NCBI GenBank assembly: GCA_032718475.1
Contig: JAUCBJ010005734.1
Span: 1 to 64,000 of the forward strand
Origin: Nemertoderma westbladi
Taxonomy: Eukaryota > Animalia > Xenacoelomorpha
Direction: 5' to 3'
Length of the DNA: 64,000 bases
In this document: piece by piece, positions 1,009 to 36,903 of the stretch
Layout: each line of letters starts with the position of its first letter
How positions within the stretch are numbered: position 1 is the first letter of the stretch
Notes under the pieces: generated by a model
Seen by the model: the letters and a program-made list of their open reading frames with translations, nothing else
Told to the model about the DNA's origin: nothing
Databases searched by the model: none
Translations under genes and position numbers: made by a program

Positions 1009-1024
1009 CACGGTCGGGGTTATA

Positions 1025-5709: not shown

Positions 5710-5725
5710 CACGGTCGGGGTTATA

Positions 5726-6589
5726 GTTTGGTGTTTGGGCGCGATTTGTGCCGTTAATACTGCCATGTGCCTTTTGTACTGTATATACAAATTTAGTTTC
5801 AGTTAGATTTGCCTCGATTTAGCTTTAGTATCAGTTACCTGTTGGTTCTTTGGTTTGGTGTTTGGGCGCGTTTTGTGCCGTTAATACTGCCATGTGCCTT
5901 TTGTACTGTATATACAAATTTAGTTTCAGTTAGATTTGCCTCGATTTAGCTTTAGAATCAGTTACCTGTTGGTTCTTTGGTTTGGTGTTTGGGCGCGTTT
6001 TGTGCCGTTAATACTGCCATGTGCCTTTTGTACTGTATATACAAATTTAGTTTCAGTTAGATTTGCCTCGATTTAGCTTTAGTATCAGTTACCTGTTGGT
6101 TCTTTGGTTTGGTGTTTGGGCGCGTTTTGTGCCGTTAATACTGCCATGTGCCTTTTGTACTGTATATACAAATTTAGTTTCAGTTAGATTTGCCTCGATT
6201 TAGCTTTAGTATCAGTTACCTGTTGGTTCTTTGGTTTGGTGTTTGGGCGCGTTTTGTGCCGTTAATACTGCCATGTGCCTTTTGTACTGTATATACAAAT
6301 TTAGTTTCAGTTAGATTTGCCTCGATTTAGCTTTAGTATCAGTTACCTGTTGGTTCTTTGGTTTGGTGTTTGGGCGCGATTTGTGCCGTTAATACTGCCA
6401 TGTGCCTTTTGTACTGTATATACAAATTTAGTTTCAGTTAGATTTGCCTCGATTTAGCTTTAGTATCAGTTACCTGTTGGTTCTTTGGTTTGGTGTTTGG
6501 GCGCGTTTTGTGCCGTTAATACTGCCATGTGCCTTTTGTACTGTATTTACAAATTTAGTTTCAGTTGGAGTTGCCTCGATTTAGCTTTA
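5726..6589 (+). repeat. 127-bp tandem repeat, second PLE copy
   Basis: Same array as 1025-1888, offset by 4701. Confidence 0.95.
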
Positions 6590-6987
6590 ACATAAGGCTC
6601 TCTGTTGTTAATACTGCCCTATGCCATTTGTACTGTAAATAGTATTTCGTACTGTAGTTGTTATCTCGCATACATAAGGCTCTCTGTTGTCAATACTGCC
6701 CTATGCCATTTGTACTTTAAATGGTAACGCACGGCCCTGCCTGATCACGTCTCGGTGCCAGACTGATTGATTTGTTTCTATGACTAAGAGTTCAGTTGTT
6801 TATTTATGTTGTCAGCTCTACGGACCGGTGCTGCACGCTTCTTATAACCACATAGCAACCGTACTGCCGTAGGCGGAGTGTTGTTATTTGTACTGTACAT
6901 ATACATCGGTTTTATACATCGACTGGTAGTCTATTTCAGTATTTGTTAGTGTTTTCTGTTTGGCCTAACTGTAGTGCAGTAGTTTTT

Positions 6988-7024
6988 GTGCTGATGATGC
7001 CCCAAAGGGGAGAAATTAATCCAC
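6988..7024 (+). ncRNA. Minimal hammerhead ribozyme, second copy
   Basis: Identical to 2287-2323. Confidence 0.85.
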
Positions 7025-7094
7025 TGTTTACATAATTATACTGAAGTGTTTATTGGGCGATGAAACTCCTTGTTGTTTTAATAACTGTCACGAT

Positions 7095-11380: not shown

Positions 11381-11898
11381 AATATATATATATAATATTT
11401 GATAAATATTTACAACGTTTGTTATAACAAATGTTAAAATAGAGGAAATGCTAACAAATCTGTTAAACCTTTAGATCCTCTAAAATTTTAGTCGATTAAG
11501 ATATCGTAGTACTTACCGATACTTTTAAAAGACAAATTTCTGGAATTAAGGATCCTAGTCCCCAGACATGTTCTGGAATAAAACTATGTCTATTTACAGT
11601 ATACAGGACTGGGCTATTTTCCGTGCACCAGGACTGGGGGGGGGGGGGGGGGTTGATTCCACCCTCCCTTCCATTTTGGATAATTACAGGCCATTTTTTT
11701 TTAAAATTGGTAGTAATGTGAAAAAATAAATACCTAGCTCGTGTGTGATAAAAAATTTTATTTTCGAGTTATGGGTGGCACCGAAACGGCACTTTTCATG
11801 CACCCACTAAAAAAAATAAAATTTCAGTAAAACAAGTCAAAAAGTCACTTTCCGCCCGGTTTTATGGGTTTTCGACCCCACTGAATCCTACCTGATGG

Positions 11899-12980
11899 TC
11901 CTATCTGCTACCCGGAGGTAGGGGTGGGCGCTACTCCTATCTGCTACCCGAGGGTAGGGGTGGGTGCTACTCCTATCTGCTACCCGGAGGTATGTGTGGG
12001 CGCTACTCCTATCTGCTACCCGAAGGTAGGGGTGGGTGCTACTCCTATCTGCTACCCGGAGGTAGGGGTGGGTGCTACTCCTATCTGCTACCCGAGGGTA
12101 GGGGTGTGCGCTACTCCTATCTGCTACCCGGAGGTATGTGTGGGCGCTACTCCTATCTGCTACCCGAAGGTAGGGGTGGGTGCTACGCCTATCTGCTACC
12201 CGAGGGTAGGGGTGGGCGCTACTCCTATCTGCTACCCGGAGGTATGTGTGGGCGCTACTCCTATCTGCTACCCGAAGGTAGGGGTGGGTGCTACTCCTAT
12301 CTGCTACCCGAGGGTAGGGGTGGGCGCTACTCCTATCTGCTACCTGGAGGTATGTGTGGGCGCTACTCCTATCTGCTACCCGAAGGTAGGGGTGGTGGCT
12401 ACTCCTATCTGCTACCCGGAGGTAGGGGTGGGCGCTACTCCTATCTGCTACCCGAATGTAGGGGTGGGCGCTACTCCTATCTGCTACCCGAAGGTAGGGG
12501 TGGATGCTACTCCTATCTGCTACTCGAAGGTAGGGGTGGGTGCTACTCCTATCTGCTACCCGAGGGTAGGGGTGGGTGCTACTCCTATCTGCTACCCGAA
12601 GGTAGGGGTGGGTGCTACTCCTATCTGCTACCCGGAGGTAGGGGTGGGCGCTACTCCTATCTGCTACCCGAAGGTAGGGGTGGACGCTACTCCTATCTGC
12701 TACTCGAAGGTAGGGGTGGGCGCTACTCCTATCTGCTACCCGAGGGTAGGGGTGGGCGCTACTCCTATCTGCTACCCGAGGGTAGGGGTGGGCGCTACTC
12801 CTATCTGCTACCCGGAGGTAGGGGTGGGCGCTACTCATATCTGCTACCCGAAGGTAGGGGTGGACGCTACTCCTATCTGCTACTCGAAGGTAGGGGGTGG
12901 CGCTACTCCTATCTGCTACCCGAGGGTAGGGATGGGCGCTACTCCTATCTGTTACCTGAAGGTAGGGGTGGGCGCTACTC
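11899..12980 (+). repeat. 36-bp G-rich minisatellite (~30 copies)
   Basis: Unit CCTATCTGCTACCCGRAGGTAGGGGTGGGYGCTACT. Confidence 0.97.
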
Positions 12981-13040
12981 GCCCCTACATGGACCATATA
13001 TTATACGCATATGGCTACATATATTTTTTAGAAGCACCCA

Positions 13041-13400
13041 AATTTGAAATTTTCATGCCGCACCCACTTCTAGGATCCCCCGAAAAATACCATCCCACTT
13101 GTCTGTGACATCTATCTATCGGTCAAAATCGATTCAGCGACCTCGAAAACCTTTGTACACAGAAAATTGACCTTTGGAAATGTGTACTATTGAAAGTGAA
13201 AATTTGAAATTTTCGTGCCGTACCCACTTTTGTAGGACTCCCCGAAAAATACCATCCCACTTGTCTGTGACATCTATCTATCGGTCTAAATCGATTCAGC
13301 GACCTCGAAAACCTTTGTACACAGAAAATTGACCTTTGGAAATGAGTACGATTGAAAGTGAAAATTTGAAATTTTCGTGCCGCACCCACTTTTGTGGGAC
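13041..13400 (+). repeat. ~161-bp direct tandem duplication (2.2 copies)
   Basis: AATTTGAAATTTTC.TGCCG.ACCCACTT at 13041, 13201 and 13363. Confidence 0.9.
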
Positions 13401-14571: not shown

Positions 14572-15190
14572 ATGACTGAGTTGATAGAAGATGATCTTGG
14601 TATTTGGGAGCGATATACCCTACCACTGCAAGCATTTGTTGATAGTTTGATAAGCGGCGACGGAAGACACACGACGGAAGACGATGGCCATTATATCGAA
14701 CCGCCAATATCAAAGGAATAGCTCAAGCATGAATTGGACTATAGAAAATTAACCGCTCACTATACGCATCGTAATGGTACGTATATGGACCTCTTAACTG
14801 CTGGTCATCCTATCGATTTACACGATATGGACGATGTAGACACCGAAAGGGAAATGATTATATTTAAATATCATGCCCAGCGAAGTCGGAATGATCAACT
14901 GAGAATTGAACATGAAAATTATATTCGAAACCGACTCGAAAGAGAAGATGTTGAAGAACCGGACAAACGTAATGACTTTAACAAATATTTAGAGTTCTTG
15001 AGAGAAACTTATCTCAATGTAGCTAGTCAGCAAAATCTCGAAACTCGATATCCTCAAGTTATACATCACAACCCTATGATGGAGCTTAAACGACTCTATT
15101 TTACTATGATGTATCTTACCGCCGATCGACCACTACCTGTTGTACCGGATAGCTTCGAACAGATGGAGGAATATTGTAAAACTGGAGAAT
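14572..15190 (+). pseudogene. N-terminal part of extra 3' ORF (ORF3) of BEL/Pao element A
   Basis: ATG 14572, in-frame TAG 14719. ELKRLYFTMMYLTADRPLPVVPDSFEQMEEYCKT aligns with EISRLYHTMQYLKAHEPMPAVRDEFDGMHLYRRT of element B ORF3. Confidence 0.8.
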
Positions 15191-16689
15191 GATCAAGCCG
15201 CTCAAGTTTGCCCTTAGCAGTGCGGCCGAGCGGTCGCCCCGGCAGACGCGACACCTATCGATCATTTCAGAATTCACGACGGACCTGCAGCACGTCTCCG
15301 GCAAGGACAACATGGTCGCAGACGCTCTCTCCCGCTCGGGGGACCCACCATGCTCCATCGACATGCCGCGCTCCGTCGCCGCCCTTCTCTCTCCCGCCGT
15401 GGAATTCGCTGCGCTCGCCGCAGCGCAACGGACGTCCGCCGAGATCGTCGCCTACCGCACCACCGTCACTGGCCTCCGCTTCGCCGACATCCCGTTCGGC
15501 GACACCACTGTGCTCTGCGACATCTCCACCGGCAAGGAGCAACCCGTAGTGCCCATCGAATGGCAGGGCCGCATCTTCGAAACCATCCACGGGCTGTCAC
15601 ACCCGGGACCCCGCCCCACCATCTGGGCGATCTCCTCCAAGTTCGTTTGGCACAACTTGAAGCGAGACGTCAAACGTCGCTGCGACGAATGCCTTGCTTG
15701 CCAGTCGTCCAAGGTCGCCTGTCACGTTCGGGCTCCCCTCGTCAGCCGTGCCGCCCCCGACAACCGCTTTGAGAACCTCCACGTCGACTTGGTCGGCCCC
15801 CTCCCATTGTCCGAAGGGAACACATACCTCTTCACTGTCATCGACCGGTTCAGCCGCTGGCCGGAGGCGCTCCCACTCGCCGACGCCACAACCGCCACGT
15901 GCGCACGTGCACTCCCACTCCCGAAACGGCTGGATCAGCCGTTTCGGGGTGCCCACACCCATCACCTCCGATCGCGGCCCCCAGTTCACTTCGCACCTCT
16001 GGACGGAGTTGAACAAGCTGCAGGCGAATGGGATGGTCGAGCGGCTGCACCGCCAGCTCAAGGCCGCACTGAAGGCCCGACTCACTGGACCCGGGTGGAT
16101 GGACGAGCTTCCCCTGGTGCTGCTGGGCATCCGCACTTCGTGGAAGGAAGACCCAGAGTGCTCTCTGGCGGACATAGTTTACGGCACCAAGCTGCACGTT
16201 CCCGGCGAGTTCGTCGAGCCCGCCACATCCGCCGTTTCACCCCCGTCGTCGTCCTTCGTCGCCGACCTCCGCGACCGCCTCCGCTCGTCCGCCCTGCCGC
16301 CGGCGTATCATGGCTCACCGACATCCACCTCTCTGCCGCCGCAGTTGACTACGGCCTCTCACGTTTTCGTGCGCCGTGGCACCCGCTGCGGCCCCCTCGA
16401 CCGCCCGTACGTTGGCCCGTACCCGGTTGTCTCCCGCCACGCGAAGCACTTCGTGGTGGACCTCGACAGCCGCGAGAACTCCGTCTCCATCGACCGGCTC
16501 AAGATCGCCCACATACCAATGGCTGCATCAGGTCTACTTCCCCCTGTCACGTACGCCCACGCCGCAGCTTCGCCACCTTCGCCCCAGCCCATCGCGTCAT
16601 CGTCCACGCCGCCGCTGATCCCGGACTTGGCCAATTTCTCCCAGTTCGGCCGCCGCCTCCGCCCACCGGCCACCTTCTCTCCGGGCTGA
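15191..16689 (+). pseudogene. Ty3/Gypsy pol 3' half (RNase H end + integrase), frameshifted near 15920
   Basis: KPL...HVSGKDNMVADALSR, H..H/C..C zinc motif, HVDLVGP, SDRGPQF, ANGMVER, GPY motif; GC-rich. Confidence 0.92.
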
Positions 16690-16717
16690 TCGCGTTTGCA
16701 CGCTGGAGGGGGGGTTA

Positions 16718-16859
16718 TGTAGGGTAGAGACTTCGGCGGGATATTCAAACTCTCTATCTACCTTTGACTCAGATAACATTTCACTTTACCGGTACAGTTC
16801 TCTTGTTATCATTTCGCAAACAACTCTACTATAAGATTATACTATCGTTGACCGCTACA
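16718..16859 (+). repeat. Gypsy 3' LTR (142 bp)
   Basis: PPT GGAGGGGGGG immediately upstream; termini TGTAG...CTACA. Confidence 0.8.
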
Positions 16860-17066
16860 CACGCACTGTTAGTAGGCCAACTTTCAGATAAGACTCAAGG
16901 ATTATATAGTTTCTCTAGTCGCTTCCTACTGTCTGTATAGAATTATATTCTCATAAATGCCGTGGATTTTCAAAATTTTATTTTGTTCGAATTAACTTTG
17001 CTATAAAGATTACATTAAGTCCTCATTTGTATTTACTATATCTATTTGTACGATGATTATTCGAGT

Positions 17067-17150
17067 GGTTCAGTAGCTCAGTCGGTAAAGCGTTGGAAAT
17101 TATATGTAGTAGGTATCGAGTTCGAATCCTAGTAGGTGCGAATTATTTTT
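17067..17150 (+). promoter_or_regulatory. tRNA-derived Pol III A/B-box cassette inside 5' LTR
   Basis: A box TAGCTCAGTCGG (17074-85), B box GTTCGAATCC (17120-29), T5 run (17146-50). The acceptor stem does not pair. Confidence 0.7.
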
Positions 17151-17216
17151 GTGCTAAGTTTCAACTCATTTAAATTAACCGCTACAAATTAAATTGCATT
17201 TGCTCGAAGTAGATTA

Positions 17217-17365
17217 ACCAATGGGATTGCAGTTATTAGATAGTAACCAATGTCGTGCAAGTTATATATTCGCTGGACCAATAGTTATCTTTAAAAACCT
17301 ATTAGAACTCATAGAACAATCGAGAATTTTCTCGATTGATTGCAGCACAAATTTGCTATAAAAGG
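17217..17365 (+). promoter_or_regulatory. Candidate Pol II promoter in LTR (3 CCAAT boxes ~30 bp apart + TATA)
   Basis: ACCAAT at ~17217, 17246 and 17277; GCTATAAAAGG at ~17355-65. Confidence 0.55.
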
Positions 17366-18832
17366 TGCGATTTGTTCATTAGTTATTAGTATACATCATT
17401 ATCATTCTTGCTTATCCTAATATATAACTTTACTAGATTATCACTTATTAGTTATCTATTAGTTTCTTGTTACGTTTACGTATATCTTTTGTAATAAAAG
17501 TTAGAAATACTTGTTACATCTGCCCTTTTCCTATCATGTTTTACCACGGTGAACTTAACTGAGGGACAGGATGGCAGGCTAAACATCGGGCCACAGCGAT
17601 GAACGGGAACATCTGAGGAATGTAGAAGGAGACAACCCGCAATATCATTCTTAGTTATTCGCCCATCGCCTGAAAGGTTAGACAGCGTTCAATGCCTCGC
17701 TACCTAAGTGTAAGACCAAAGATCGAAGGTAGAGGTAGTGACACGCTGTGCGCTAAAATTTACATGTAGGGACTGTACTGTCTTAATTCAGAGAAAAAAC
17801 CCGCAGTAGACCTTCATATTCCTACGGGGGGAGAGGAGATCAGGCAGAGATACTAGTACACAGATAGGACGCAGGCACACCGGTACAAGGCATACACATT
17901 GGTAGGGTGCAGCAAACTGTACGCCTAACTCTTGCTAAGTATAGGTGCGTCTGTGACTGTTTGTAGTACAACGGTGTCCATTGCATTTGAACTTGTAGGC
18001 TAGAAGGGTTACTGTGTTTTACCTGAATTAGGATTGTACCGTTCAGGCGGTAGGGCAGTTTACAACTAGGCGCAAATAAATTGAGGCTATTTAGGGATAC
18101 TAACATCTACCGTGTCCCCACCAACACGTACCCATCTAGGCAACCAAAATTCTAGATAAGAACACCAGGCTAGCTATTAGTAACAGTACGCCTACTGTAG
18201 TAAACTAACACATTTCTTCTTAGTATTAGGGACCTGGTAAATTAAATTGCCGAATTCTGGGCGTAGTATTAACCTTATGCCTGAATTTGAGTCCTGGAAA
18301 TACACAAAAGGGGAAGGAGCCTTATCATTCGTGAGTATTGGACCTACAAGTTACAAAATTAGAATATTTGTAAAATGCACACCGGACCCAGTAATTATAT
18401 ATGTGAAGGAGCAAAACTGACTTTGACTGTTTAGAATCAAGACACGCGCGCGTTAGAAATTATTTACACCTCAAAATATATAAAATTAACTTTTGTCCGT
18501 ACTGCGCTTTGCCCGCTAGTTAGACATCTCTGCACCTAGCTAGCATCTCTCTATCCCAACCATATAAATCACACCGCGGCAAAGTATACGAGCCCCTTAG
18601 TCCATCAGTGAGTCAGCCTGATTTTAGGATTCGCTGCGCGGGATTTTGTTTTATCGAAGTTTGTCCGTTCGTAGACTGTTTTCTGCCTCACCGGTTATAA
18701 GAGACAAAATACTGCAATATATATTCGCTTACTTTGAGTTTACTGTTTTGGTGAGAAGGTCGGATTTATGATTTGATTCACAAACTTTACAGTAAGATAT
18801 TGCAGGGTATTTTGTTACTGTCTCTTCGCATA

Positions 18833-18918
18833 GTAGGAATATGTATTATTTAACATATTTCCTAGAGAAGTAGGAATATGGTATTATTTAACATATTTCC
18901 TAAAATAGTAGGAATATG
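18833..18918 (+). promoter_or_regulatory. Non-tRNA primer-binding region: three GTAGGAATATG copies abutting the 5' LTR
   Basis: Copies at 18833, 18870 and 18908; exact complement CATATTCCTAC at 17815-17825; no TGG-type tRNA PBS. Confidence 0.7.
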
Positions 18919-19715
18919 TTTTACTGAACTACGGTTCGGTAGGACTAAAGTTATTTGAAAATTTTGTATTTTGAGGTAAAAGTTTATATTTGATTAGCTA
19001 AGTGCTAATTTTTTGAAATAAAATTTTGATTTGAACCGCGTGTAAAATATTTTGGAATTGAATACTGGTGTTTAAAAGGGTTTAAATACCATATTGTACC
19101 GGTACAAAATTTTCGTAAAAGTAAAACCTAACTCTTTTGTTTTTCAGGATTCAGAGCTCATTTCTAGACTGTAACGAGAGCAAGACCGTGTTTAGCAAGT
19201 TTGGGAGATAGATAACTCAACAACTTTGGTTGGGAAAATCGCACTTCGTCCGCAACGCTGGAAACGGAAAGGTTCACGTCCGGTTTGTATCTGGGAATCT
19301 GTTTTTCTGGAGAATCATTGGAGGGGGTGAGTTCGAAAAGTTGCATAAATAAGTTAGGCATTACCGTATTAGTTAAAATTATTGTGGGTTCCACTGTCTC
19401 AAGTATTTATGCATTCCGTATGATTTCTTTGTTTATTGCTGAATTAGTCCGTATTATTGTATTTAATCTACCTTTTGATAACGTATATCGTTATCTGATT
19501 TATTTGTCGTAAAATTGGCCGGTAGGCTAATTTTATTATATACTTACTCCGTGACATTTATTTGCATAAAATTGGCCGCTAGGCTAATTTTATCCATCTG
19601 CTATAAAATCGGCCGGTAGGCTAATTTTATATGACTGTAATTAATACCGTTTTGATATAAAATACGGTAAGTTTGATATTTTGACACTCACTTTACTTGA
19701 CTTACAACTACCGAA

Positions 19716-22700
19716 ATGAGTGACAAACAAGACTATACGAAGAATACACAAACCGACTATGACTCATGCGACGCGGATAAGTCAGAAGCGGAAGAACCAC
19801 AGGGGAAGACTCGTGAGCCTACCGAACCTACACCGTGCGCGTCACCAGTACATCCAACGGGAGTACCGGATGCCGTAGTATGAGGCGACGGCAGGACCGA
19901 CGATTTCCTAATGTTCCCGCAACCTAGACATAGAGAAACGGACATGGTAAGTTCAGTAGGAAGCCAGGAGAGTGTAGTTAGAAGCGTCGGAGGATACATG
20001 GCGCATATTACCAGGAGTATTGGAGAGGGCCAACGCATATTAGACGAGTTAACCGCTCCGATGTCTCGGTTCGAGTTCTACACCCTCCAGGTTAGAGTAC
20101 AGAGTAAAGTACATAAGTCTGTAGATAATCTAATTGGTCTACAAGATCTAGCTAGACAGAGACAGGATATGGACACACAGTTTAGAATCCTCGAGAAATT
20201 AATGATCGCTAGGGAGAAACTGATTCAGTTTAAGACAACCGTTAGACAGATACAACAGGAACAAGCGGACCAGTTATTAGGTGAGTCGATTTCCGACGAG
20301 TTATTACAGCCCGAGGAAGAACAACTGTACCGACTGGATGGACAATTGAAACATCTGACGGATCACTTACGTATGTGCGGCGAAGACGTCGGCGATTTGG
20401 AAACCGTGCCGGAATATACGAGGGAAATTTCACCCGTACAAATCGAATCGGCACCGGGAATACTGGACCAGTCATTGGTGAGTATTCGCAGCGAAATTGG
20501 CGAGGTAAGTATAGTGACGTCAGAAATTTCTCGACAGCAACAACAGTACTATAGACAACAACGAGAAATTGAGGAACAAACTCAACTGTTAACGGTACAA
20601 GCAGCGGTAGATGAAGAGAAGCTACGCGTTGCGAATGTTGCGAGAATCTCTCATCTGCAAGAACAAGCCGAACTGGAAGCAGCTGAGATGGAAAGGTTAG
20701 AGCTAGAAATAGCACAGCGAACAGCGGCAGCTGAGTTAGCGCAACAAGCGGCAGCAGCTGAGTTGGAACGACAAATGGCAGCAGCTGAGTTGGAACGACA
20801 AGCAGCAGCAGCTGATTTAGAGCGACGAATTACGAGCAGCAGAATTGGAAGAACACAAGCGAGTTTCGGAAGCGAGAGCCGAGTTGAAAAAACGACAGAT
20901 AAAGGCTCAATCAGCTATACGACTAGCGGAGTTCGAGGCGCAACAACAACAGATGGAACAACGCGAGAAGGAAGTTAAACTTCATTTCGAACTCGAGAAG
21001 AAGGCGAGAGAATTAGCCAACGCTAAGGAAGATCTGGATCTACAAGCCCGCGATCGATCGATGAGATCTCGAGACGGACACGATCTAGACCGGTTGGAGG
21101 TAAGACATCGTCAAATTCAGGAACGAATGAAGGAAGGAAGCGTAGGAGCACCTGAGCGAGAACGGGAATTGGTTAAAGACTTATGTCAATGATTTCCGCA
21201 AGTAACTCCGATGTTCGCACTAATTACGAATAAAGGACCTGTTTCGATTGCTGGTAGTAGCAGTATATCTCCTATACACGATGCAACGGAACACAGGTAT
21301 GTTATTCCGGACAAGTTTGTACCGCCGAGAGCAATGTCATCGCCTATTCCGAGAGTTAAGGTAAGTAACCCACCGATTACCGATCGTAGTAGGTATTAGT
21401 CAGACCCACATTAATGACGACTAAACAGGTGAGTCAAACATCGACACCTAAACCTGTGACACACTACACAAACCACTTGATATTCAGGCCTTCAAGGCTG
21501 TTAGACTCAAACATTACGCGACCACGAATTCAGTTTACATCGCAATCTACGACTTCGAGGAAGACCTGCGAGCCTACCGAACAACGAAGACCAGTGGATA
21601 CGCGACCGCTTAACCAGTTTACATCGCAATCTACGACTTCGAGGAAGACCTGCGAGCCTACCGAACAACGAAGACCAGTGGATACGCGACCGCTTAACCA
21701 GTTTACATCGCAATCTACGACTTCGAGGAAGACCTGCGAGCCTACCGAATGACGGAAACCAGTAGACGATGTTCCGAAGCGGAATGTTAGAATTCGGACA
21801 ACCCAACGGACGCAAGCACGTCGGCCACCGTATCCAGGTGATAGTAGTACTTCGAGTGAATCGGATTACCCGGAACGCGAAGTGTTTAGAACAGGAGCGG
21901 CCGATGAATACAAATGCGAGCATTCAGACAATTCCTTTATAGACAATCCTCCACAAAATACACCAACACAGAAAGCGTTACAACCAATGGACGCTATCAG
22001 TACACAACAGTTCGCCGACATTCTGCGACCAGTTGTTAACAAGTTGGCTCAGATCGAGGAATGCTTGGAGGAAGTTCAAACAGATAGTTCGCGAAACACC
22101 GAATTCGAACACAATAGAAACCCGAAGGAACCTCAAAGAGTGATACCTTCAAGAAACACCTCGTATCAAAGAAAAGCGCCAAGACAGGAGAACATCAACT
22201 TGATTGCCAACCAAGGACGCGAAACTTTGAATGTAGCCGAGGAGATAGCCAAATTCGCAGCCAGACAAGGACTACAGATGCAACAACCACCTAAGTTTTC
22301 CGGTAATTCTAAACATTGGCACACGTTCATAGACTACATCGAATCTCAAATTGCGGCGTGCGCTTTTACCTCAAGGGAAAAGTTCAACTATTTGCTTCAA
22401 ACTTTGACGGGAGAACCAAAACGCTTAGCGGAGACTTCCGTTGGAGTACCAGATGCCTTCGAGTTAGCATACGATCGCTTAACTTCAATCTACGGAGGTA
22501 CAGTCAGTATGGCCAAGTCAGTGATAGAGGAACTCTGTAAGGGGGGGGGCTATTACTAAACCCGTCGACTTACTGAAGTTAGCTGACGAAATAAAAAACG
22601 CTATCACTACATTGAGATCTATTGGACAACTCGGTTACGGGAACACCCCTACAGTCCTATTAAAGATCATAGGAAGACTCCACCATCGACTTTGTCGGGA

Positions 22701-25700
22701 GTGGAGGAAGATCGAATACCAGCGGGAAGAACGGGGTGGATTCTTGAAACTGGAAGATGTGTACTTATTAATATCCAGGGAAGCGGTAGTGGAGACACGA
22801 TCCAACTACACTGACCAACACATCGTAGCAGAAGGAATCACCTTACCATCCTCAAACCGACAAAAACCCCAGACAACATCCACCAAGACGGCCACTTACG
22901 CCACATCGACAGAAACCCGACAATTTTCGGACGGTAGCCGCACCTATTGGGATCAAACAGACCAGACAACAACTGAGTGCAGATTGCCGGTTGCCAATAC
23001 TGCGAGCAGCTAGGCAAGCGGCACACCACTCACAAGTTAAGAGGTTGTCGGCTGTTTCGTGAGTTAAACTCGGAAGAACGACGGCTGCAGATACGGCCAT
23101 TGGACTCTTGTTGGCGGTGTACTCAACACGGACACGTCCGCAATGATTGTCCAAATACAGACACTTGTCCATCCTGTGGACGCAACCACGACGGTTTGCT
23201 CCATACGGACAGCCATACGCCGACCAAACGCTTCACTAGGGAACACCCAGAAGCAGCAGCGAAATGTAATACGGCCTACAAGAATCGTGAATCGAGAACG
23301 ACTCCAACGTTCGTGACGCATATTCGGGATTGTTTCCCAGAGCAATCCGGGTCTTCTGACGAAGAAACCGAGGACGACGACATATACTCAGATGGAGACG
23401 AACAACCATCGATCGCGCTTCTGACGACTGACCAACTAAAAGGTTTCAGCGTAATTCCTATTAAGATTACTGGCACCAAAGGGAGCAAAAGGATCTACGC
23501 TATTCTAGATTCAGCCTCATCTCACAGCTATGTGGATGAGAAGGTAGCTGATGTCGTGACGGATCTCCGACAAGGTAAGAACGTCAGTTACACCGTAAGT
23601 AGTATGCATGGACAACGTGCAATACCAGTGACACGAGTTAAGTTAAACTTAGACACTCTTCTTCCGAAATCGCAACACAGCGAAAAGGAGAGGTCTTTGT
23701 TACCCTTTAAGGATTTGACTTTTGCGGCCACCAAGGACTTTAGTAACCTACTGGGTCCAGTGCCGGAACAATCCCTAGAGGACCGTAAGTATTTCAGACA
23801 CCTTGGTGTACCTGAATGTCCTGTCAACTATAGATCAGTAGCAATGCTGATCGGGACGGATCAATTCAATTTACATCAAGTGTGGGAAACCAGACCATCG
23901 GTAGTCGTAGCAGGAAATGCATACGCCTGTCGAACTCCGATAGGTTGGTATACTCGAGCGCCTGTGCGCACACTAGATATAAGCGATGAGGAAGACGATG
24001 TACAAAGTACATGTAGTTTATTAACTACAACTTCAACTCATTCCTTTTCACACGACAAGGACTATACTACACTACGTTCGACAAAACACAACAACGTTAC
24101 AAGTACGACGTCTGTAGCTAATACGATAAGTCACAAAGAGCAGCCAATCCACCAGGTTAGTATAAAGATTGAGAAGGAGCGGAGTCAGGCAGAGGTTCCA
24201 TCAACGATAGATGATAACGCCGGAAGGCTTGTGAGTCTACCTCAACCAATAACTTCAACAACGCCCATCGATGAAGACGCGTTAAGAAATCATCAAGTGG
24301 AACAAGCTGCACTAGACAAGGAATTAACAGAGAAAACTATCAGGTGGTTAGAACAAGACACAGCCGAACCTGGTAGTTACGAACCATGTATGTCGGAACA
24401 AGAGAAACAATCTTTAAAGATCATGGAAGATACTATCCGCCAGACGAAAGACGGACATTATGAGGTAGGGATGCTATGGCGTAACCAACGTCCTAAACTT
24501 GCAAATAACTATCCGCTAGCCTTACGACGCTTACACTCAATACGACAACGTTTATTGAAGGACGAGAAAGCCCATCTGCAGTACAATACTCAGATGGAGA
24601 CGTATTTGACGAAAGGATACGCTATCAGAATGACAAACCCAGAGATTGTGACTGACCAGACATACTACTTGCCACATCACTACGTGAGACACCCCGATAA
24701 ACCAGACAAAGTACGTGTAGTCAATGACTGCGCGGCTCTGTTTGAGGGAATGTCTCTCAATAGTGAGTTGATGGATGGACCAAACATGAATAATTATCTC
24801 ATGGGGGTGATTATGCGCTTCCGTCAGCGCCAAGTAGCATTTACTTGTGACGTAGAAGCGATGTTTCACCAAGTGCGAGCGTTAGAGCGAGACAGAGACA
24901 GTTTGAGGTTCCTCTGGTACCCGGATGGAGACTTAAGTCAACCACCGGCGACTTACCAAATGCAAGTTCGCGTTTTCGGTGCCAGGGACAGTCCAAACTG
25001 CACTATGTACGCCCTAAAACAAACCGCTAGGGATCAGAAACATAAATATGACCCAGAGGTAATCCAAATCGTAGAACGAGACTTTTATGTGGACGATGGA
25101 TTACAAAGTTGTGACACAGTAGAACGTGCTATAACAGTAGCACATCAATTACGGGACTGTTTAGCAGGCGGAGGTTTTAACCTCACTAAGTTTGCCTCAA
25201 ACAGCGCCGAATTAGTAAATTCATTCGAAACGACTGAACGTGGGGGTGGGGACATTGACTTAGAGTTCGAACCACTGCCGACGACCAAGGTGTTGGGACT
25301 ATTTTGGGACCCGAACACAGACAACTTTCGAGTGAAAGTAAAACTGGACGCTGAAGGGGATTCTCTGACAAAGAGGTCTTGCTTGTCGAAACTAAGCAGA
25401 CTGTTCGATCCATTAGGTTTCATCAGCCCAATAATACTGCAAGCAAGAATATATATGCGCAGTATTTGGAAAGATGGACTGACATGGGACGAACCGATCT
25501 CATCCGAACAAGTGGACTTATGGAAGACTTGGGAGGCACAATTATCTTCGCTAGAGGATTATTCCATACTAGATATAGTCCGTTTTTACAGACGACATTT
25601 CCTGACAACTTAGAATTACATTGTTTTTCCGACGCCAGTGACAACGGCTTTGGTGTGACAGCGTATTTGCGCAGACAAGTAGACTCAGATGAGTTTGATG

Positions 25701-28354
25701 TATCGCTCATTACTTCTAAGGCTAAAACAATGCCTACTAAGTATATGACGACACCACGCGCTGAGCTACAAGCCGCAACTCTGTCAACGACAATTGTAAA
25801 CCTCATACAGACTGAACTACAGTCAAGTTTACAGATATTTTATTGGACTGACGCGACGTTAGTTTTATTTTATATAAACAACGACACACTTGAATTCAAG
25901 ACATTCGTAGCTAACCGTCGTGCAGAAATTCTAGACCGTTCAATAAAGGAAGATTGGCGACATTGTCCCGGACCACAAAATCCAGCTGATATTGCGTCGC
26001 GAGGAATGATGCCTGAGGAATTCTGTAAACCGGAAAACAAGAAATTTTGGCAACACGGACCACAATTCTTACAAAGAGCAACACAACATCGGGCCACTTT
26101 ACGATAACAAGTTTAATACTATTCCTAAGGACGCCGAAATTAAAAAACCAAAGAAAGGTAAAGCAAAGAAAAAGACAACGGCGAAACTTAAGAAGAAACC
26201 AAAGGCGAAATGGAAAAATATAACTTACAAAGTTAAGGCAGGAAGACTTGCGAGCCTTTCTCAACCAGACGTATCGCCAGACAGTCAACCAGACACGTTA
26301 CCAGACGGTCAACTAGACATTTTGCCAGACATGTCACTAGACGTTTCGCCGGATGTTCCGCGAAACATTTTACCAGACATTTCACAAGATGTTCTACCAG
26401 ACATTAGTAACGTAGCGACACATAGTAAAGCCGCAGTTTCCCTATTGGAGCGGCCTTCTATTGACAAACTACCAAACTTGACACCCTTGAGTAACCATAA
26501 GTACAGTGAAACCTCATGTATTACAGATGTGGGTAGTACCTACGCTAATGTAAATACAGGTGTTACTTTATGCTCAAGAGACATACCAACCTTACAACCT
26601 ACGGTGAGACCTGGGATTAATATCGGCAGAAAAACAAATTTACCGAAACCCAGCGATCCCATAGAGTTAAAACCACCATTACGAATCGACACACAAAGTA
26701 ATGACAATCAAGGTAAGAAGACAAAGAAGGACAAATTACTTGTAGACCCGGACGGATCAACAGTCAACAAGGGAATACTTACCGGCGGACTTGTGGGCCC
26801 ATCTAGTAAAACAAAACCTTCCAAATTCTCCATTGACTTACCTGATGACGTCACAAATACTTACGTCGACCGTATTGTAAATTTGACAGATTCTTGGACA
26901 AACGCATGCCGAAAATTAGCGTGGATTGTACGTTTTGTACAATACGTTAAAGGCAAACGCAACTTTACACGTCGACTCACATTGACTGAGATTGACAGAT
27001 GTGAAATTAAATTAATTCGCATTACCAATTGCGATATTTTGCACGCGAATTCACATCTATAAGTCAAGGTCAACCAATCAAGTCGTCACCAATACTGAGT
27101 TGGAGTCCGATAATTTATAATGGCTTAATTTGTCATAAATCTCGGCTTCAAAACATTGACTTTAATACTGATTTTAGATACCCGATAATAATACCACAAC
27201 ATCACGAATTACAACGTGCAATGATACTGGACGCACATTTACATCTAAAACACGCTGGAAGACACCACTGTCTTTCCTACTTACGTACAAGATTTGTATT
27301 AATTAGACCCAGTAAAGCGCTAAGTTCAGTGACACGTATGTGTCTTATTTGTAAAAAGGTACATTCTAGAATAAGTACCCAAGAAATGAGTGAACTTCCA
27401 CAAGCACGACTACAGGCATTCAGACCACCCTTCACAGAGACTGGAATTGACTGCTTTGGTCCCATACATACGAAACGTGGACGTATACTAGTAAAACGCT
27501 GGGGACTGATTTTCACATGCATGTCCAGTAGGGCAGTTCATCTTTCCACCAATGCCTTTATACTAGCATTGCGGCGATTTATCGCTAGACGCGGACTAGT
27601 GAAATGCTTGTACTCAGACCAAGGTACAAACTTCGTTGGTGCTCGAAATGAAATTGCTAGAGCCTTTAAGAAATTAGATCATGATCAAATCTCAAACGAA
27701 CTACGTCCTTACAAGATTGTTTGGAAGTTTAATCCTCCAGACAGTCCATGGAGAGGCGGAGTCTGGGAGAGATTGATTAGATCTATAAAAACAGCCATGG
27801 CAAAAGTAATTCCTGTAAACCACATCTTGACAGACAACCAACTGACGACATTGTTTGTTGAAATCGAGGCAATACTAAATACTAGACCAATAGTATTAGT
27901 ACCCGATGACAAACAATCCCAGTTTGCTTTAACACCGGCACACCTGCTGATGCAGGCACCGACTACATTAACGCCTATTTCTATTCCAATAGAAGGCGAT
28001 AGCTACGGTAGAAAAGCGTGGAAAATCACGCAACTACTAGCCAACAAATTCTGGGAAATATGGCAAAACCATTATTTGCCCTCTATTTCTGCCAGAACAA
28101 CTTGGTACAACAAAACTCGCGCTTTAAGAGCGGGAGATCATGTGCTGTTAGCAGAAGTGAATCTAAAAAGACGCTTCTGGATAACAGGTGTAATTTTAGA
28201 CACACATCCATCTATGGATGGAGTGACAAGGACTGTGACTGTACGGACAATTGACGGTCGTACAGTAGACAGACCGACTTAAAGTCTCGTACTTCTGGAA
28301 GAGACGCGAAACAAGTCTGGAGATTACAAGTCTCCAACTAATGTTAGTAAATAG
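19716..28354 (+). pseudogene. Element B gag-pol (coiled-coil Gag, CCHC knuckles, protease, RT, RNase H, integrase) with several stops and frameshifts
   Basis: PPKFSG..W..F, CWRC..GH, ILDSAS, YVDD, FSDAS, NPADIASRG, TGIDCFGP, SDQGTNF, GGVWER. Confidence 0.93.
21531..21770 (+). repeat. 84-bp in-frame tandem repeat in Gag (~2.8 copies)
   Basis: QFTSQSTTSRKTCEPTE repeated three times. Confidence 0.92.
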
Positions 28355-29016
28355 TAAGGAGTTTACAAATAGATTTCCACGTACCTGTACACTGTAGTAA
28401 ACACAGCGGTAGAATTCCATTGTCTTTATATGTGAACATTAAGGGTAGTACCCTTATGTGTCACATAGGAGCGGGATTTGTAGGTATAAGAAATGGAATT
28501 CTACTTGGAACTCACAATATTGAGACATTTTCAAAATTTTAGAAAATCCATTTGGATTTGAAAAAATTTTAAAATTTTCTCCAGTGAATAGATTTCAGGG
28601 TACAGTCGGGTGGAACTTAAAATTAGAGAAACAAGAGAACGGAAGACTCGCGAGCCTTTCTTAAATTTTAATAAAATTTACACGGTCTTGTTTCAATAAG
28701 TTACGTCAAATAATAGACTTCCCTATATTTATTACTAACTCTTGATTGCTTATTTTCTGATAATAGTTTGGGATCAAAAAGTGAGTATTTTAGACTCACA
28801 GCCAGTTTAGCCCAAATTCGTTTTTATTTCGGCAAAAAATTTTAGATAAGAAGCAGCGTGTCATTAAAGAAACCCTAGATCTTAGGCTATGGGTAGGAGG
28901 TTAGAGCATTGTCGAGCCAAAAGGGCAGACGAAAACTCTCACATCTCCTCACAACTAACAATAAACTCTGTTGTATTCCCTCTAGTAGCAATGATTATGT
29001 AACTACACTTCTAATA

Positions 29017-32000
29017 ATGGCGAAAGGGATACATGGAGAGACGAGATGGGGATATGATATCCAAGAGGAAGCAGCAGCGCCATTCGAACGATTTGGAGCT
29101 AAGGATTACACCATATTTGGAATAAAGGATTTATCAGAAAGTACAGCGAAACTCGCAAAGACCAAATATGACTCGAACGTATTAAAGAGAAGGCAAAATG
29201 CGTTAAATGAAAGAATCGAAAGTTTACGCAAAACCTTCAATGAACTTTACCCGTACGACGGTTTATGTGATACGGGAGATATTAGCGAAGATCCCGACAC
29301 CGAAATTAGTCGTTTGTATCATACTATGCAATACCTGAAGGCGCACGAACCTATGCCCGCGGTACGCGATGAATTCGATGGAATGCATCTTTACAGACGA
29401 ACTTGAGGGGACGATAGAGAAACAAAGGAAGCATTTTCAGTTTATAAACTTTATTATCAATGTGGTGCTTGTATGCGCGAACAACGAAATGCGATTCCGA
29501 TGCGTTTGAATAAGGAAAATCCCGAACCGATATTGGCGAGGTGTTCGAACCATCAACAACTACGCTACCAGGAAGGAGGGTATCCTTCATCGAATCCATA
29601 TCATTCATTCGCTATGACTGGACCAAAGGCGGGAGAAATTGTCGTTTACCCACCTAAGGTTGTTGAACCCGATGTATTTGAACTTACGCTGGACGAGGCG
29701 ACTCAGTCAACCCGCGAAAAGAAAGAAGCTCTTAGCCTATACAGAGCCTACAAGGCTTTCGAGAAAGGTGAGATGGAAGAATGGGGCGGAAGACTCGCGA
29801 GCCTACCTTACCATTGGACGTCACACGATCAAACTTCAGCTAAGGAGATGACACCGGAAGTTTTCGAGAGTATAAACTTTGCTCAAAACGTTATTCAGAG
29901 ACTACAGATTGCATCCCCGGAAAGGACAAGAGAAATGCAACCGTATAGTACTTCAACTACGAAACCATTGAGTACGACACTCAATTTCCCTATTAGTATA
30001 CCAGTTCGACAAGATACAACGTATGAAATACCTATTGTGGATCATCCGGAAATCATTTCGAACTTAGAGTTTCTTCCTGCAGTTGTTCTAAGCGATATGG
30101 TTAAGATATATGATTTACGTAGACATATTACACAAAAGGTCGTGCATAATGTCCGCCTCATATTCAAGACTTTAGGGAACTGGATAGAGCTGGCGCTGAT
30201 ATAGCTCCGAGTAACCTGAAAGGATATTTAACCAAAACAATTCGCTTATGGATTGGAACAGGAACCTTTGAGTCGGATACAGATATCGCTGCGGACTGGC
30301 AAGGTAAAGTCATTCGTTTCGAGGACGAGAAAGACATAGAGAAGATTTGGCAACCTTCGGAAGAATTATTGGATGAATGGAATAGGACGTTTAGATCTTT
30401 TCAGGAAAACGGTTACATGTTTTATGATAACGAGGGCGGCAGCCATCAGCAGAGTCTAACCTCCAAGACTATACAAATTAGAGCGGCAGACGGAGTTTTG
30501 CATGTTTTCAGTAGACAAAGGAGCGACAAGCGAATGCCGATACCTCCAGGAACTACCAAGCGGCACCATTTCATCACTAATATAGTAAAGAAAATGGACC
30601 AAGCTTGCAATATCGATGCTAGAATGTTACCAAAGATGGTGAGAAATATGATTTTAGATAAAACTGTTGTAAAGATTGGATCAGGAGTAAGAGAGGACTT
30701 AATTAGCGACTTCGCCGGCATGTCGGACAGTGACGACCAATTACCGACACCTTACGTCGACACTCGACCTCTTATACTGTGGTCTATAGAATAAGGATAC
30801 TTCCGTGAGTATGATACTCAGAAAACCGGAACTGGATACATTTCCTACTTGATGTTTAATTGGGATTACAAGGAAAGTAAAAGAACAAAGTATATCGAAA
30901 CGTATGGAGAAGGTGATACTCCAGATATAAATGAGTTTGAATCACAGCTCAAATGGAGAGGATGCGTATATTGGGCTATTACTTCACCTCCAAGAGCGGT
31001 ACTACAATATTATTTAGCGATAGAGTCATCAGTGAATGTTTGCTTAGTCGCCGACATTGTGTCTCGGACTCTTAAAAGACATCCACTTTGCCTCGGAGAA
31101 GATCATACATTCTATGCGGAAGGGAGAATTCATACCGATGTGTTTAGACGGTTTCTCGAACCCTTCTACAATTCCGACGCTCAGTGTAATGCCTTCACTC
31201 GAGCAGGATTTAGTATATTTCGAGACGTGTATCTTCGCTGTGCGGGATCTCTTATCGAAAGACCATCTACGTTTACATTGTTACCCTATGAAGGAGAACG
31301 TATCGTGGAGCTTACCGACGAATCACGGCACACGCGCGCGCCTATCGGTCACTTAGGTGATGATTTCGAAGTAACGACGACCATCGATGATCCTTTAGAG
31401 GAACTTCTTGAGATTGAAAGGAACCTCCCGAAGAAATCTCAGACGGAGATTCGACAATTAGAAGCAACAGATGCTGTAGTTTGCATACAACCTTCTGAAA
31501 CATACCAACCTATCGACCCAGACGATTACGACTATAGTGTGGGAGGAAGCGCTCGACCCATTGGCGATCTTATATATGAGCGAGTGTGGTACCCTGCTAA
31601 TACGATATGTGGTAAATGTGGCGTCGCTGGCCATCATTCGACAAAGTGCAGTGGAAAGCACATTACTACAACTCAACTAATCTGTGGATGGTGTGGAGAT
31701 CAAGGGTCCCATACATTTTATACTTGCTGGAGATTTATGGCTCAATGCACATACTGTAATATAAAGGGACACCGAGCATCTGAATGTCAATTGAGAGACA
31801 TACCTTACGAACACGAATCTGTAAAACTCGTGCGAAAACTATTTGATGATTGGGAAGATTTGGCTGATGAACATGTATCGGCGCAAAGAAGACGGTTCCC
31901 GATGAGAGCGCATCTTGGATTTTGGGCGGTAAATCCTCAAACTATGATGTCGGAAGGATATATCTCCGCTATGCCACAATATGACGAACTCATCGAGGTA

Positions 32001-32738
32001 GTTGATATTTTGCCTCACGATAGTGGATTCCGAGTTGTGCGCGAATGTTTGTTACAGATACACCCTGACAATAAGAATACATGGAATTTCCAGAAAGTCG
32101 TTAATCGTATCACGTATGGTGAATTTGATCGTTTCTGAATGGAAAAGCGGAACAAGGGAGCTTGGTTAACCGTCGCATGGGCGTACCGAGCCGCGTTCTA
32201 CCATAAACGTATACGAGCGAGCGTATTCGAGGAAGAGAAGGTCCTAGAGGCGACCAACATACCAGCTACTCCAGTCGCGCCGTCTGCACGTCACCCTCGG
32301 GAGGACGGACAGCACAGGATCATACGGGTTCAGAAAGTGGGCCAACAATTAAAGAAAACTATCAATGTTGAAGAACGAAGGGGATACGAACCGACTATTC
32401 GAATTACTCAGGATACGGTTTCGCTTCCCAGAGAACCGCAAGGAGGATCGGGACATATACCAGCTGATCAAAAGGGGGCGCAAGCTTCTCTTGGGTCTGC
32501 GTCGTCCGCTTCTCGCGCGTTCCCAGACGTTTTACCAGCGGTAGATACAACCGATCGGTCACGAGGAATTGGACGAGGATTTGGGATAACTAAGAGACGA
32601 ATATGTGAGACAATGGTCGTACCATCTCCCAACGTCCAAAGTAAACCAGTGGCTCGCCCCACAAGTCCCATATCACGAGCTAAATCACCGATACGCAGTT
32701 TTCGAGGACGTGGCAGGGCTCGATCCGCTAAGCGTTAA
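29017..32738 (+). pseudogene. Element B ORF3: novel N-terminal domain + DEDDy 3'-5' exonuclease + 3 CCHC knuckles + basic tail (3 stops, 1 frameshift)
   Basis: Reading through stops: WQGKVIRFED, YMFYDNEG (ExoI), IQIRAADG, LPKMVRNMILDKTVVKIGSGVREDL (ExoII), PYVDT, W...QYYLAIE (ExoIII-like); CGKC..GHHSTKC, CGWC...HTFYTC, CTYC..GHRASEC. Confidence 0.8.
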
Positions 32739-33620: not shown

Positions 33621-33629
33621 ATGGAGCGG
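33621..33629 (+). promoter_or_regulatory. Polypurine-tract equivalent of element B (ATGGAGCGG)
   Basis: Directly abuts the 3' LTR start TATAGA. Confidence 0.75.
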
Positions 33630-35543
33630 TATAGAATTATATTCTCATAAATGCCGTGGATTTTCAAAATTTTATTTTGTTCGAATTAACTTTGCTATAA
33701 AGATTACATTAAGTCCTCATTTGTATTTACTATATCTATTTGTACGATGATTATTCAAGTGGTTCAGTAGCTCAGTCAGTAAAGCGTTGGAAATTATATG
33801 TAGTAGGTATCGAGTTCGAATCCTAGTAGGTGCGAATTATTTTTGTGCTAAGTTTCAACTCATTTAAATTAACCGCTACAAATTAAATTGCATTTGCTCG
33901 AAGTAGATTAACCAATGGGATTGCAGTTATTAGATAGTAACCAATGTCGTGCAAGTTATATATTCGCTGGACCAATAGTTATCTTTAAAAACCTATTAGA
34001 ACTCATAGAACAATCGAGAATTTTCTCGATTGATTGCAGCACAAATTTGCTATAAAAGGTGCGATTTGTTCATTAGTTATTAGTATACATCATTATCATT
34101 CTTGCTTATCCTAATCTATAACTTTACTAGATTATCACTTATTAGTTATCTATTAGTTTCTTGTTACGTTTACGTATATCTTTTGTAATAAAAGTTAGAA
34201 ATACTTGTTACATCTGCCCTTTTCCTATCATGTTTTACCACGGTGAACTTAACTGAGGGACAGGATGGCAGGCTAAACATCGGGCCACAGTGATGAACGG
34301 GAACATCTGAGGAATGTAGAAGGAGACAACCCGCAATATCATTCCTAGTTATTCACCCATCGCCTGAAAGGTTAGACAGCGTTCAATGCCTCGCTACCTA
34401 AGTGTAAGACCAAAGATCGAAGGTAGAGGTAGTGACACGCTGTGCGCTAAAATTTACATCTAGGGACCGTACTGTCTTAATTCAGAGAAAAAACCCGCAG
34501 TAGACCTTCATATTCCTACGGGGGGAGAGGAGATCAGGCAGAGATACTAGTACACAGATAGGACGCAGGCACACCGGTACAAGGCATACACATTGGTAGG
34601 GTGCAGCAAACTGTATGCCTAACTCTTGCTAAGTATAGGTGCGTCTGTGACTGTTTGTAGTACAACGGTGTCCATTGCATTTGAACTTGTAGGCTAGAAG
34701 GGTTACTGTGTTTTACCTGAATTAGGATTGTACCGTTCAGGCGGTAGGGCAGTTTACAACTAGGCGCAAATAAATTGAGGCTATTTAGGGATACTAACAT
34801 CTACCGTGTCCCCGCCAACATTCTGTTAGGAAGTTGCCGTACCCATCTAGGCAACCAAAATTCTAGATAAGAACACCAGGCTAGCTATTAGTAACAGTAC
34901 GCCTACTGTAGTAAACTAACACATTTCTTCTTAGTATTAGGGACCTGGTAAATTAAATTGCCGAATTCTGGGCGTAGTATTAACCTTATGCCTGAATTTG
35001 AGTCCTGGAAATACACAAAAGGGGAAGGAGCCTTATCATTCGTGAGTATTGGACCTACAAGTTACAAAATTAGAATATTTGTAAAATGCACACCGGACCC
35101 AGTAATTATATATGTGAAGGAGCAAAACTGACTTTGACTGTTTAGAATCAAGACACGCGCGCGTTAGAAATTATTTACACCTCAAAATATATAAAATTAA
35201 CTTTTGTCCATACTGCGCTTTGCCCGCTAGTTAGACATCTCTGCACCTAGCTAGCATCTCTCTATCCTAACCATATAAATCACACCGCGGCAAAGTATAC
35301 GAGCCCCTTAGTCCATCAGTGAGTCAGCCTGATTTTAGGATTCGCTGCGCGGGATTTTGTTTTATCGAAGTTTGTCCGTTCGTAGACTGTTTTCTGCCTC
35401 ACCGGTTATAAGAGACAAAATACTGCAATATATATTCGCTTACTTAGAGTTTACTGTTTTGGTGAGAAGGTCGGATTTATGATTTGATTCACAAACTTTA
35501 CAGTAAGATATTGCAGGGTATTTTGTTACTGTCTCTTCGCATA
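33630..35543 (+). repeat. 3' LTR of element B (1914 bp)
   Basis: Copy of the 5' LTR plus 17 extra bp (34821-34837); followed by GTCTG. Confidence 0.95.
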
Positions 35544-36903
35544 GTCTGACTGTCCTACATATTCTGGACCACTGTATTTTACTAGTCAGCTAGTCTGCTA
35601 GTACAAAATACCTACTACAGTACTAGGTACTGGTAACTACATATCCATAGTCTGGACCAATACTGGTACTTATCAGCTTATTGCATATTGTTCTAAGGAC
35701 GTTAGTCTGTTATTGTCTGATGGTGAAAATTCGCCCTGTCAGCAAATCCACTAAGAAGATTTAATTGCTTCTTGCTGCTTTTTCCCAAACGAGAAGCCTG
35801 TTATGATTATACCTTGTATAACGGTATAAGCGAATCGTTTGAAGGTAACTTGCAAGTTCAAATATTGGATCGCTTTGTTACATAGTTTGTATATAGGCCT
35901 ACAGGCCTACCATACTACAACTGTACTGGCATATGTAAGTTCTACTTTTCTACTGTCCTAAAGTAAGTACAACCATTTTAAAATTTATAAAGGAAAACGG
36001 AAAGAGGAGAGTTGTGAAGTTGTGAGAGAGCAAATAATAAGATAAGCCTATATTTAATATTACGATATCATTAAGTCATTAGGCTATAATCCTGTAATTT
36101 TATTATATAAATTCGAATTAGTGCTGCACCGGTACTGCTGTAGTGGCAATATGCATTGCATAGTGTTGCCTTAAATTAAACATCTGACATTATAGTGGTA
36201 GGCACGTGGATCCAGACCCAAATACTGGAATACCACTGGCTGATAATTTTACCCATAATTAATTACTACCGGTATACGGTGTACGGGAAACTTATGATAC
36301 GGTACTTTAATTAATACCCGGCTAGTATTATTAACACTAATATTCCTAGTTGAAGTAGCTTCATTTGGTCATATTGACATTACATGTATTGTACTGTTAT
36401 AGGCTATTTCTGTATTACAACCTTTTAGTAGGCCTGTTGGTAGGATATATAGAAATCATTGTATATATTTCAGATAAGTTTATATATATTTGAGTACCGG
36501 TATAACCTTTAGTACACTAGTACTGTAGTAGGCATATGATTTGTGCCCCGCTGTCCTGTATATACAAAGAAGCAGATAATACAATACAGATACCGGTATT
36601 TAAACTTTCTATAATCAGATAATAGGCTAGACCTATTTACTAAATTATCAGTTAAATTATCATAAATTAAATATTTTATAAACTCTATAGAATCAATAGA
36701 CCTCTGTACTGTAACTTGTTTATTTAAACACTATAAGTCACTGTTTATAGTCTGATAGTTATTAGGCCTAACACTTGACAGGACTGGTATTACCATTCAA
36801 GTGTACCTTTATTTATCTTTAAAAGCCTATAGGCACTGGCGCTATACTGTATAGTTTATCAGTACCCAGGTAGTATATAGGTACGTTTATTTCTCAATTA
36901 AAT

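Follow-up and report, generated by a model that had tools for sequence, protein, structure and literature searches.

A BEL/Pao retrotransposon of Nemertoderma westbladi likely primed by a segment of its own LTR RNA

How a BEL/Pao retrotransposon begins reverse transcription when the bases directly past its 5' LTR offer no tRNA site is the question raised by an element in the genome of Nemertoderma westbladi. BEL/Pao ranks among the main LTR superfamilies of animals, and its elements are described as primed by tRNA; the ICTV profile of the Belpaoviridae gives an 18-nt primer-binding site (PBS) for tRNA-Arg or tRNA-Gly, puts the LTRs at 0.2-1.2 kb and the genomes at 4.2-10 kb, and calls the replication of the group 'poorly understood' (PMC8742986). 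Comparisons within the window (the whole stretch of 64,000 nucleotides that was analysed, from contig JAUCBJ010005734.1) and among relatives suggest that the element likely primes reverse transcription with an 11-mer piece of its own LTR RNA.

The BEL/Pao element measures 18.6 kb and is bounded by LTRs at 16936-18832 and 33630-35543; self-BLAST of the window returned a single long direct repeat, 16935-18834 / 33629-35545. Its parts are listed with the evidence for each.

16931..16935, plus strand: target-site duplication GTCTG, left copy (flank sequence)
16936..18832, plus strand: 5' LTR of 1897 bp, with termini TAT...ATA instead of TG...CA (self-BLAST, border resolution)
21753..22559, plus strand: gag fragment with DUF1759, PF03564 (ORFs, Pfam)
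22977..26107, plus strand: protease-RT-RNase H region in two frames, with PF05380 in each (ORFs, Pfam, homologues)
27011..28282, plus strand: integrase fragment, with weak PF17921 and DUF5641 (Pfam)
28897..32738, plus strand: extra interrupted coding region, whose sole Pfam match is a weak zf-CCHC (ORFs, Pfam)
33623..33629, plus strand: polypurine tract (PPT)-like GGAGCGG adjoining the 3' LTR (sequence)
33630..35543, plus strand: 3' LTR, carrying an anti-PBS copy at 34509-34519 (self-BLAST, border resolution)
35544..35548, plus strand: target-site duplication GTCTG, right copy (flank sequence)

Between the two LTR copies there are 13 substitutions and one 17-nt indel. Pao-type Gag and Pol domains between direct LTRs, the target-site duplication and the PPT are those of a BEL/Pao element, as is the Pfam order of DUF1759, Peptidase_A17, weak Integrase_H2C2 and DUF5641 (PR-RT-RH-IN); matches to DUF1759, PF05380 and DUF5641 were above cut-off, and that to PF17921 was weak. 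The RT region is 38-45% identical to BEL/Pao polyproteins among the 120 listed of 376 homologues, all 120 of which contain PF05380, and the named ones come from marine invertebrates. Together with the available part of PMC6238403, these matches make a placement in the Sinbad/Sailor lineage plausible; no named Sinbad, Sparrow or Surcouf reference was present among the same 120. Membership of the Tf1/sushi chromoviruses is not indicated, as Pol is Pao-type and Pfam returned no chromodomain match. Both gag and pol are broken over several frames and pieces, so that this copy is defective and would have to rely on others. Contigs of the family are plentiful in the DNA runs, with 4,481 in X1 and 1,956 in X3 (runs X1-X4 are assembled contigs, X4 not being on record as RNA), and a viral contig collection contained no relative of the element and no match to its conserved block. 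No family could be assigned to the extra coding region (28897-32738) with Pfam, and Atlas gave no usable match for it. Window positions 14965-15183 match the first piece of this region, 28897-29406, at 36% over 73 aa; going by this match, a relative carries the same extra ORF. The element itself appears to lie inside the LTR (TGTAGG...CCTACA; 16718-16930, 35549-35559) of a GC-rich Gypsy-like integrase fragment at 15180-16727.

The sites on which the priming question turns are the following.

17815..17825, plus strand: anti-PBS, the candidate self-primer CATATTCCTAC, with a cut predicted after 17825 from Tf1
18075..18080, plus strand: AATAAA downstream of the anti-PBS, with a 3' LTR copy at 34769 (sequence; use presumed)
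18833..18843, plus strand: PBS copy 1, abutting the LTR, without TGG (sequence)
18870..18880, plus strand: PBS copy 2 (sequence)
18908..18918, plus strand: PBS copy 3, also preceded by ATA (sequence, folding)

Border resolution and motif search confirmed the starting point of the sequence-only reading, namely that the 11 nt past the 5' LTR lack TGG and are the exact complement of a segment inside the LTR: GTAGGAATATG at 18833-43 has its reverse complement at 17815-25, with a further complement copy at 34509-19 in the 3' LTR. The 18-nt host-tRNA PBS of the ICTV profile was not found here, with no TGG in the first 7 nt past the LTR. GTCTG on both flanks makes 18833 the first base past the LTR, and with the LTR ending at 18832 the 11-mer stands in register 0, so that the 3' C of 17815-25 pairs with 18833, as that reading had also held. 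The complement that starts at 18833 is 11 nt at most. The 11-mer occurs five times in the window (plus strand at 18833, 18870 and 18908; minus strand at 17815 and 34509), where shuffled sequences give 0.01; the expected count of an 11-nt complement in the LTR is 6.3e-4 under an order-2 Markov model, and 46 of 59,972 other 11-mers of the window have an LTR complement, a chance of about 7e-4. ARAGORN and Rfam detected no RNA gene near the LTR (the one Rfam match had E 2.9). For this element, a primer formed across a splice junction was also tried and rejected, the best reaching 8 nt, below the contiguous 11 nt.

The triplication of the PBS 11-mer, in a unit of 37-38 bp, had been missed in the earlier reading. 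Copies 1 and 2 each precede a near-complement and are predicted to form local hairpins of -8.7 and -7.4 kcal/mol. Contig joints at 18766-18907 (X1 and X3) and 18847-18947 (X1) skip parts of this repeat region, which suggests that the family includes copies with fewer PBS repeats; no contig joint was listed within 17750-17890. Farther upstream, U3 positions 17064-17135 and their 3' LTR copy contain a tRNA-like A box (17074-85) and B box (17120-29). This stretch recalls the tRNA-like LTR segments of Helenus; ARAGORN and Rfam made no call for it, and it is not complementary to the PBS.

In Tf1 and Tf2 of Schizosaccharomyces pombe, in Tj1 of S. japonicus, and in the Tf1/sushi and Tcn1 chromoviruses of Ty3/gypsy, the PBS is complementary to LTR RNA of the element itself; in Tf1 the helix has 11 nt and RNase H cuts between bases 11 and 12, according to the available parts of PMC7175516 and PMC4600332. 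Self-priming is known in Tf1/sushi, Tcn1 and the copia TAR lineage (PMC6317226, PMC4600332, PMC3601003, as far as available). Like the Tf1 group, our element has a PBS that adjoins the 5' LTR, is complementary to its own LTR and would form an 11-nt helix. Unlike that group it belongs to BEL/Pao, its helix spans 1007 nt, an RNA start at the primer is only predicted, the corresponding segment is mostly splice-formed in its relatives, and the PBS of this copy is triplicated. In the TAR lineage of plant Ty1/copia (Houba, Osr-1), self-priming has been predicted from PBS-LTR complementarity; this lineage shares predicted self-priming outside the Tf1/sushi group, in another superfamily and kingdom, and the available text mentions no splice-junction primer (PMC6317226).

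The check proposed by the sequence-only reading, a comparison with related full-length elements, was run and came out in its favour: PBS letters differ among relatives, and 14 of 16 elements have a complement in their own LTR against none of 236 non-cognate pairs. From 103 collected loci, 21 had a direct repeat around RT and a defined 3' end, and 15 were kept after six with repeats lacking LTR-like ends were dropped (L036, L037, L058, L068, L090, L093). The LTR ends of L052, L092 and L099 were shifted 1-6 nt by eye, and for six loci with an undefined LTR start the 500-630 nt before the 3' end were used. Each element was scored by its longest perfect complement in the LTR, whether contiguous or spanning a GT-AG junction, with a threshold of 10 nt; the permitted offset past the LTR, at first 0-3, was widened to 0-4 after L035 was seen to pair at offset 4.

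TGG was absent from the first 7 nt past the LTR in 14 of the 15 relatives. A perfect self-complement of 10-15 nt at offset 0-4 was found in 13 of these 14 non-tRNA relatives (14 of 16 elements with this one included), and 0 of 236 non-cognate PBS-LTR pairs reached 10 nt at the same offsets. With the original range of 0-3, 13 of 16 elements had at least 10 nt, and the non-cognate pairs gave 0 of 236 under strict and 5 of 236 under loose splice sites. The match was contiguous in L001, L049 and this element; in 11 relatives only the joining of a GT-AG junction produces it, as a sequence that the DNA itself lacks, mostly with GTAAG or GTGAG donors and acceptors rich in pyrimidine. The helix measured 10-12 nt in 13 of the 14 positive elements, and pairing began 0-4 nt past the LTR in all 14. 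The negatives were L075, the sole TGG-type element (4 nt), and L086 (8 perfect nt, or 10 of 11 by eye).

By blastn the LTRs are mutually unrelated, save for the sister pairs L022/L099 and L082/L084. Between L082 and L084 three exon-1 junction bases differ, as do the three opposite PBS bases; complementarity is kept through sequence change across the relatives. In L049 one LTR copy contains the acceptor and the other the joined sequence, in copies that are 88% alike and on a possibly chimeric contig. When 11 loci lacking a defined end were scanned blind, five gave matches of at least 11 nt, against 5 of 220 shuffles; three of these fell in families already counted and two were new (L003, L091), and 6 of the 11 loci gave none. 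Of the 15 non-tRNA elements, 12 have AATAAA or ATTAAA downstream of the paired segment, a count for which no control was computed. A quick tree of 99 rows (L097-L103 excluded as too short) placed self-complementary elements on both sides of the midpoint, and grouped this element with the window's other two BEL/Pao elements, within a set of 12 rows that includes both L031 (self-complementary) and L075 (tRNA type), so that the priming mode seems, from these sequences, to have switched at least once. The position of the tRNA-type L075 so near this element, nested among self-complementary ones, counts against self-priming. Since no LTR pair flanks the other BEL/Pao elements of the window, they offer no internal control.

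Several further features of the relatives were recorded. The LTRs of L001 and L035 start with TGT and end with TATA, and L035 has a perfect 5-bp target duplication. With the PPT end set by eye, the gap from its final GG to the LTR equals the PBS pairing offset in L001 (3), L022 (2), L035 (4), L099 (2) and this element (0); in L060, L082, L084 and L086 the two differ by one. Twenty-three of the BEL/Pao loci (L081-L103) lie in contigs of bacterial MAGs, which are most likely misbinned host DNA.

Under self-priming, the genomic RNA of the element would start at or just before 17815, and 17815-25 would pair with the PBS. A cut after 17825, probably by the element's own RNase H as in Tf1, would allow RT to extend C17825 through 18832 down to 17826, a distance of 1007 nt, and the strong-stop product would then jump to the 3' R region closed by AATAAA at 18075/34769. 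The primer would be copied during plus-strand synthesis, rewriting the PBS in each cycle, and the two sites would thereby stay matched. In most relatives the primer segment would arise only once an LTR intron had been spliced out, this element representing the intron-less form. The strongest indication that the PBS is either templated by the element's RNA or selected against it comes from its match to a junction not present in the DNA. We lean towards a broader reading, in which self-priming has replaced tRNA priming in a large and widespread animal branch of BEL/Pao and the host spliceosome joins LTR exons into the primer in most members. If so, splicing would have to take out the intron in the RNA's 5' LTR copy and spare it in the 3' copy; splicing of the 3' copy as well would yield intron-less descendants such as this element.

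Less of the earlier proposal survives concerning where the RNA begins. The comparison argues for tRNA-independent self-priming, as in its Tf1-like mechanism, and leaves the start near 17815 unestablished. An Inr-like motif (YYANWYY at 17814) does overlap the segment, but the LTR holds 19 such matches, and the AATAAA at 18075 is present as described; another, at 17493, precedes the paired segment. The claim of a start at about 17815 is weakened by this one-in-19 Inr, by the lack of TATA within 150 nt upstream of 17815 in the element, and by the 11 relatives whose segment spans a splice junction, where an RNA beginning at that segment would have a first exon of just 3-9 nt. Among the 15 non-tRNA elements, TATA was found at -31 in one, at -49 in one and at -122 to -135 in three, with no constant spacing upstream of the primer segment. 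We infer that the genomic RNA would begin at 17815 or a few tens of bases before it, and the AATAAA at 18075 would then close an R region of about 270 nt.

Two predicted features bear on transcripts that start elsewhere.

17992..18016, plus strand: predicted competing arm, pairing with 17802-17828 for RNA starts at 17387/17600 (folding only)
17677..19147, plus strand: candidate GT-AG intron, the splicing of which would take out the self-primer segment together with every PBS copy (X4 joint, motifs)

In predicted folds of RNAs starting at 17780-17816 the segment pairs with some PBS copy at a summed probability of 0.8-0.98; with starts at 17387 or 17600, no segment-PBS pairing is predicted. These folds speak for a start near 17815, as do the helix lengths of 10-12 nt in 13 of the 14 positive elements. 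Against it, the in-register copy 1 takes about 0.1 or less of the predicted pairing and copies 2 and 3 take the rest, copy 3 forming the strongest predicted duplex with 17790-17825 (-21.5 vs -14.7 and -16.2 kcal/mol). Such long-range folding is weak evidence either way on the RNA start. The joint from 17676 to 19148 occurs in X4 alone, with 22 letters on its short side, and the candidate intron has a branch-like CTAAC, a pyrimidine tract and AG before 19148. This joint, a lead rather than an established splice, would imply a transcript from further upstream without primer and PBS. Such an RNA may serve as mRNA, an effect comparable to the non-replicating Tf2 transcript (PMC5341516, in the part available).

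The modelled folds also bring forward the best-surviving alternative, which we regard as improbable: that the LTR segment pairs with the leader for folding, packaging or control of splicing, and another RNA primes. A triple PBS with local hairpins and a competing LTR hairpin would resemble an RNA switch. However, the register fits a primer, lying 0-4 nt past the LTR in 14 of 14 elements with 10-12 nt in 13, no tRNA-type site is present, and pairing extended beyond the core helix, suspected by eye, was not significant (permutation p = 0.10; 0.17 without L084).

Priming by a host tRNA fragment (anticodon loop, as in copia, Ty5 and the fungal Helenus) or by a small RNA, with a merely secondary LTR match, is less probable still. 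Such priming requires no TGG (PMC10886601, in the part available), and one relative, L075, is of tRNA type; yet twelve unrelated LTR groups and this element differ in PBS sequence, and almost every PBS finds its match in its own LTR and not in those of the others, and a host primer would not track the element's splice junction. A chance match, or a single snap-back event that duplicated the site in this copy, is very improbable: the region past the LTR is indeed triplicated with internal hairpins, and family contigs skip parts of it, but the chance probability is about 7e-4, 13 of 14 non-tRNA relatives show the same relation, and the LTR segment is conserved in the family.

Conservation of the segment was assessed in contigs of the family, where it falls in the following block.

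17804..17830, plus strand: block with a single listed family substitution, 17817 T>C, bordered on either side by substitutions, indels and loose ends (contig comparison)

This LTR segment is conserved in the family: the comparison lists 14 substitution rows within 17750-17890, of which only 17817 T>C lies inside 17804-17830, and among the rows listed indels and loose ends are concentrated at 17792-98 and 17829-48. The exception falls within the primer segment and counts against self-priming. It accounts for 16-24% of depth in X1-X3 and for 774.6/820.3 in X4, and it is predicted to weaken the duplex with the PBS of this copy from -13.7 to -9.5 kcal/mol.

On balance, the element is a BEL/Pao member that lacks the tRNA PBS of its group and likely works like Tf1. 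It resembles the Belpaoviridae of the ICTV profile in its LTRs, PR-RT-RH-IN order, Pao-type Pfam domains, PPT and animal host, and differs in the lack of a tRNA PBS, the 1.9-kb LTRs, the length of 18.6 kb and the TA...TA ends. No report of BEL/Pao self-priming was found in the literature searched, a coverage lying outside subscription papers, Repbase reports and most supplements and comprising some papers in part. Among papers on BEL/Pao, the terms primer, PBS and tRNA are absent from PMC3118150, PBS and tRNA from PMC554778, and PBS from PMC6238403; the available part of PMC8220671 has general mentions without discussion of the PBS, and PMC10886601 and PMC13524379, as far as available, deal with tRNA primers.

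If 14 of the 15 sampled relatives indeed dispense with a tRNA site, self-priming would have arisen in a third superfamily, and in marine invertebrates it may be common. Self-priming would explain the failure of tRNA-based PBS annotation in these elements, would tie retrotransposon replication to host splicing, and could free the elements from tRNA supply and from silencing by tRNA fragments. The self-priming reading also predicts exact RNA ends, with a cut after 17825.

Elsewhere in the window, GGGAGCGG followed by TA, resembling the PPT and LTR start of the element, occurs at 44677-44687 and 47630-47640, the former after another BEL/Pao element (36874-44299); these sites suggest a local clade with TA-starting LTRs. 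Positions 1-7094 hold a tandem 4701-bp unit with a 1121-aa ORF, 127-bp repeats and no Pfam match, which looks Penelope-like from a GIY-YIG-type motif. Satellite arrays occupy 11755-13098 (36 bp), 46413-47340 (15 bp) and the region from 59642 onward (34 bp).
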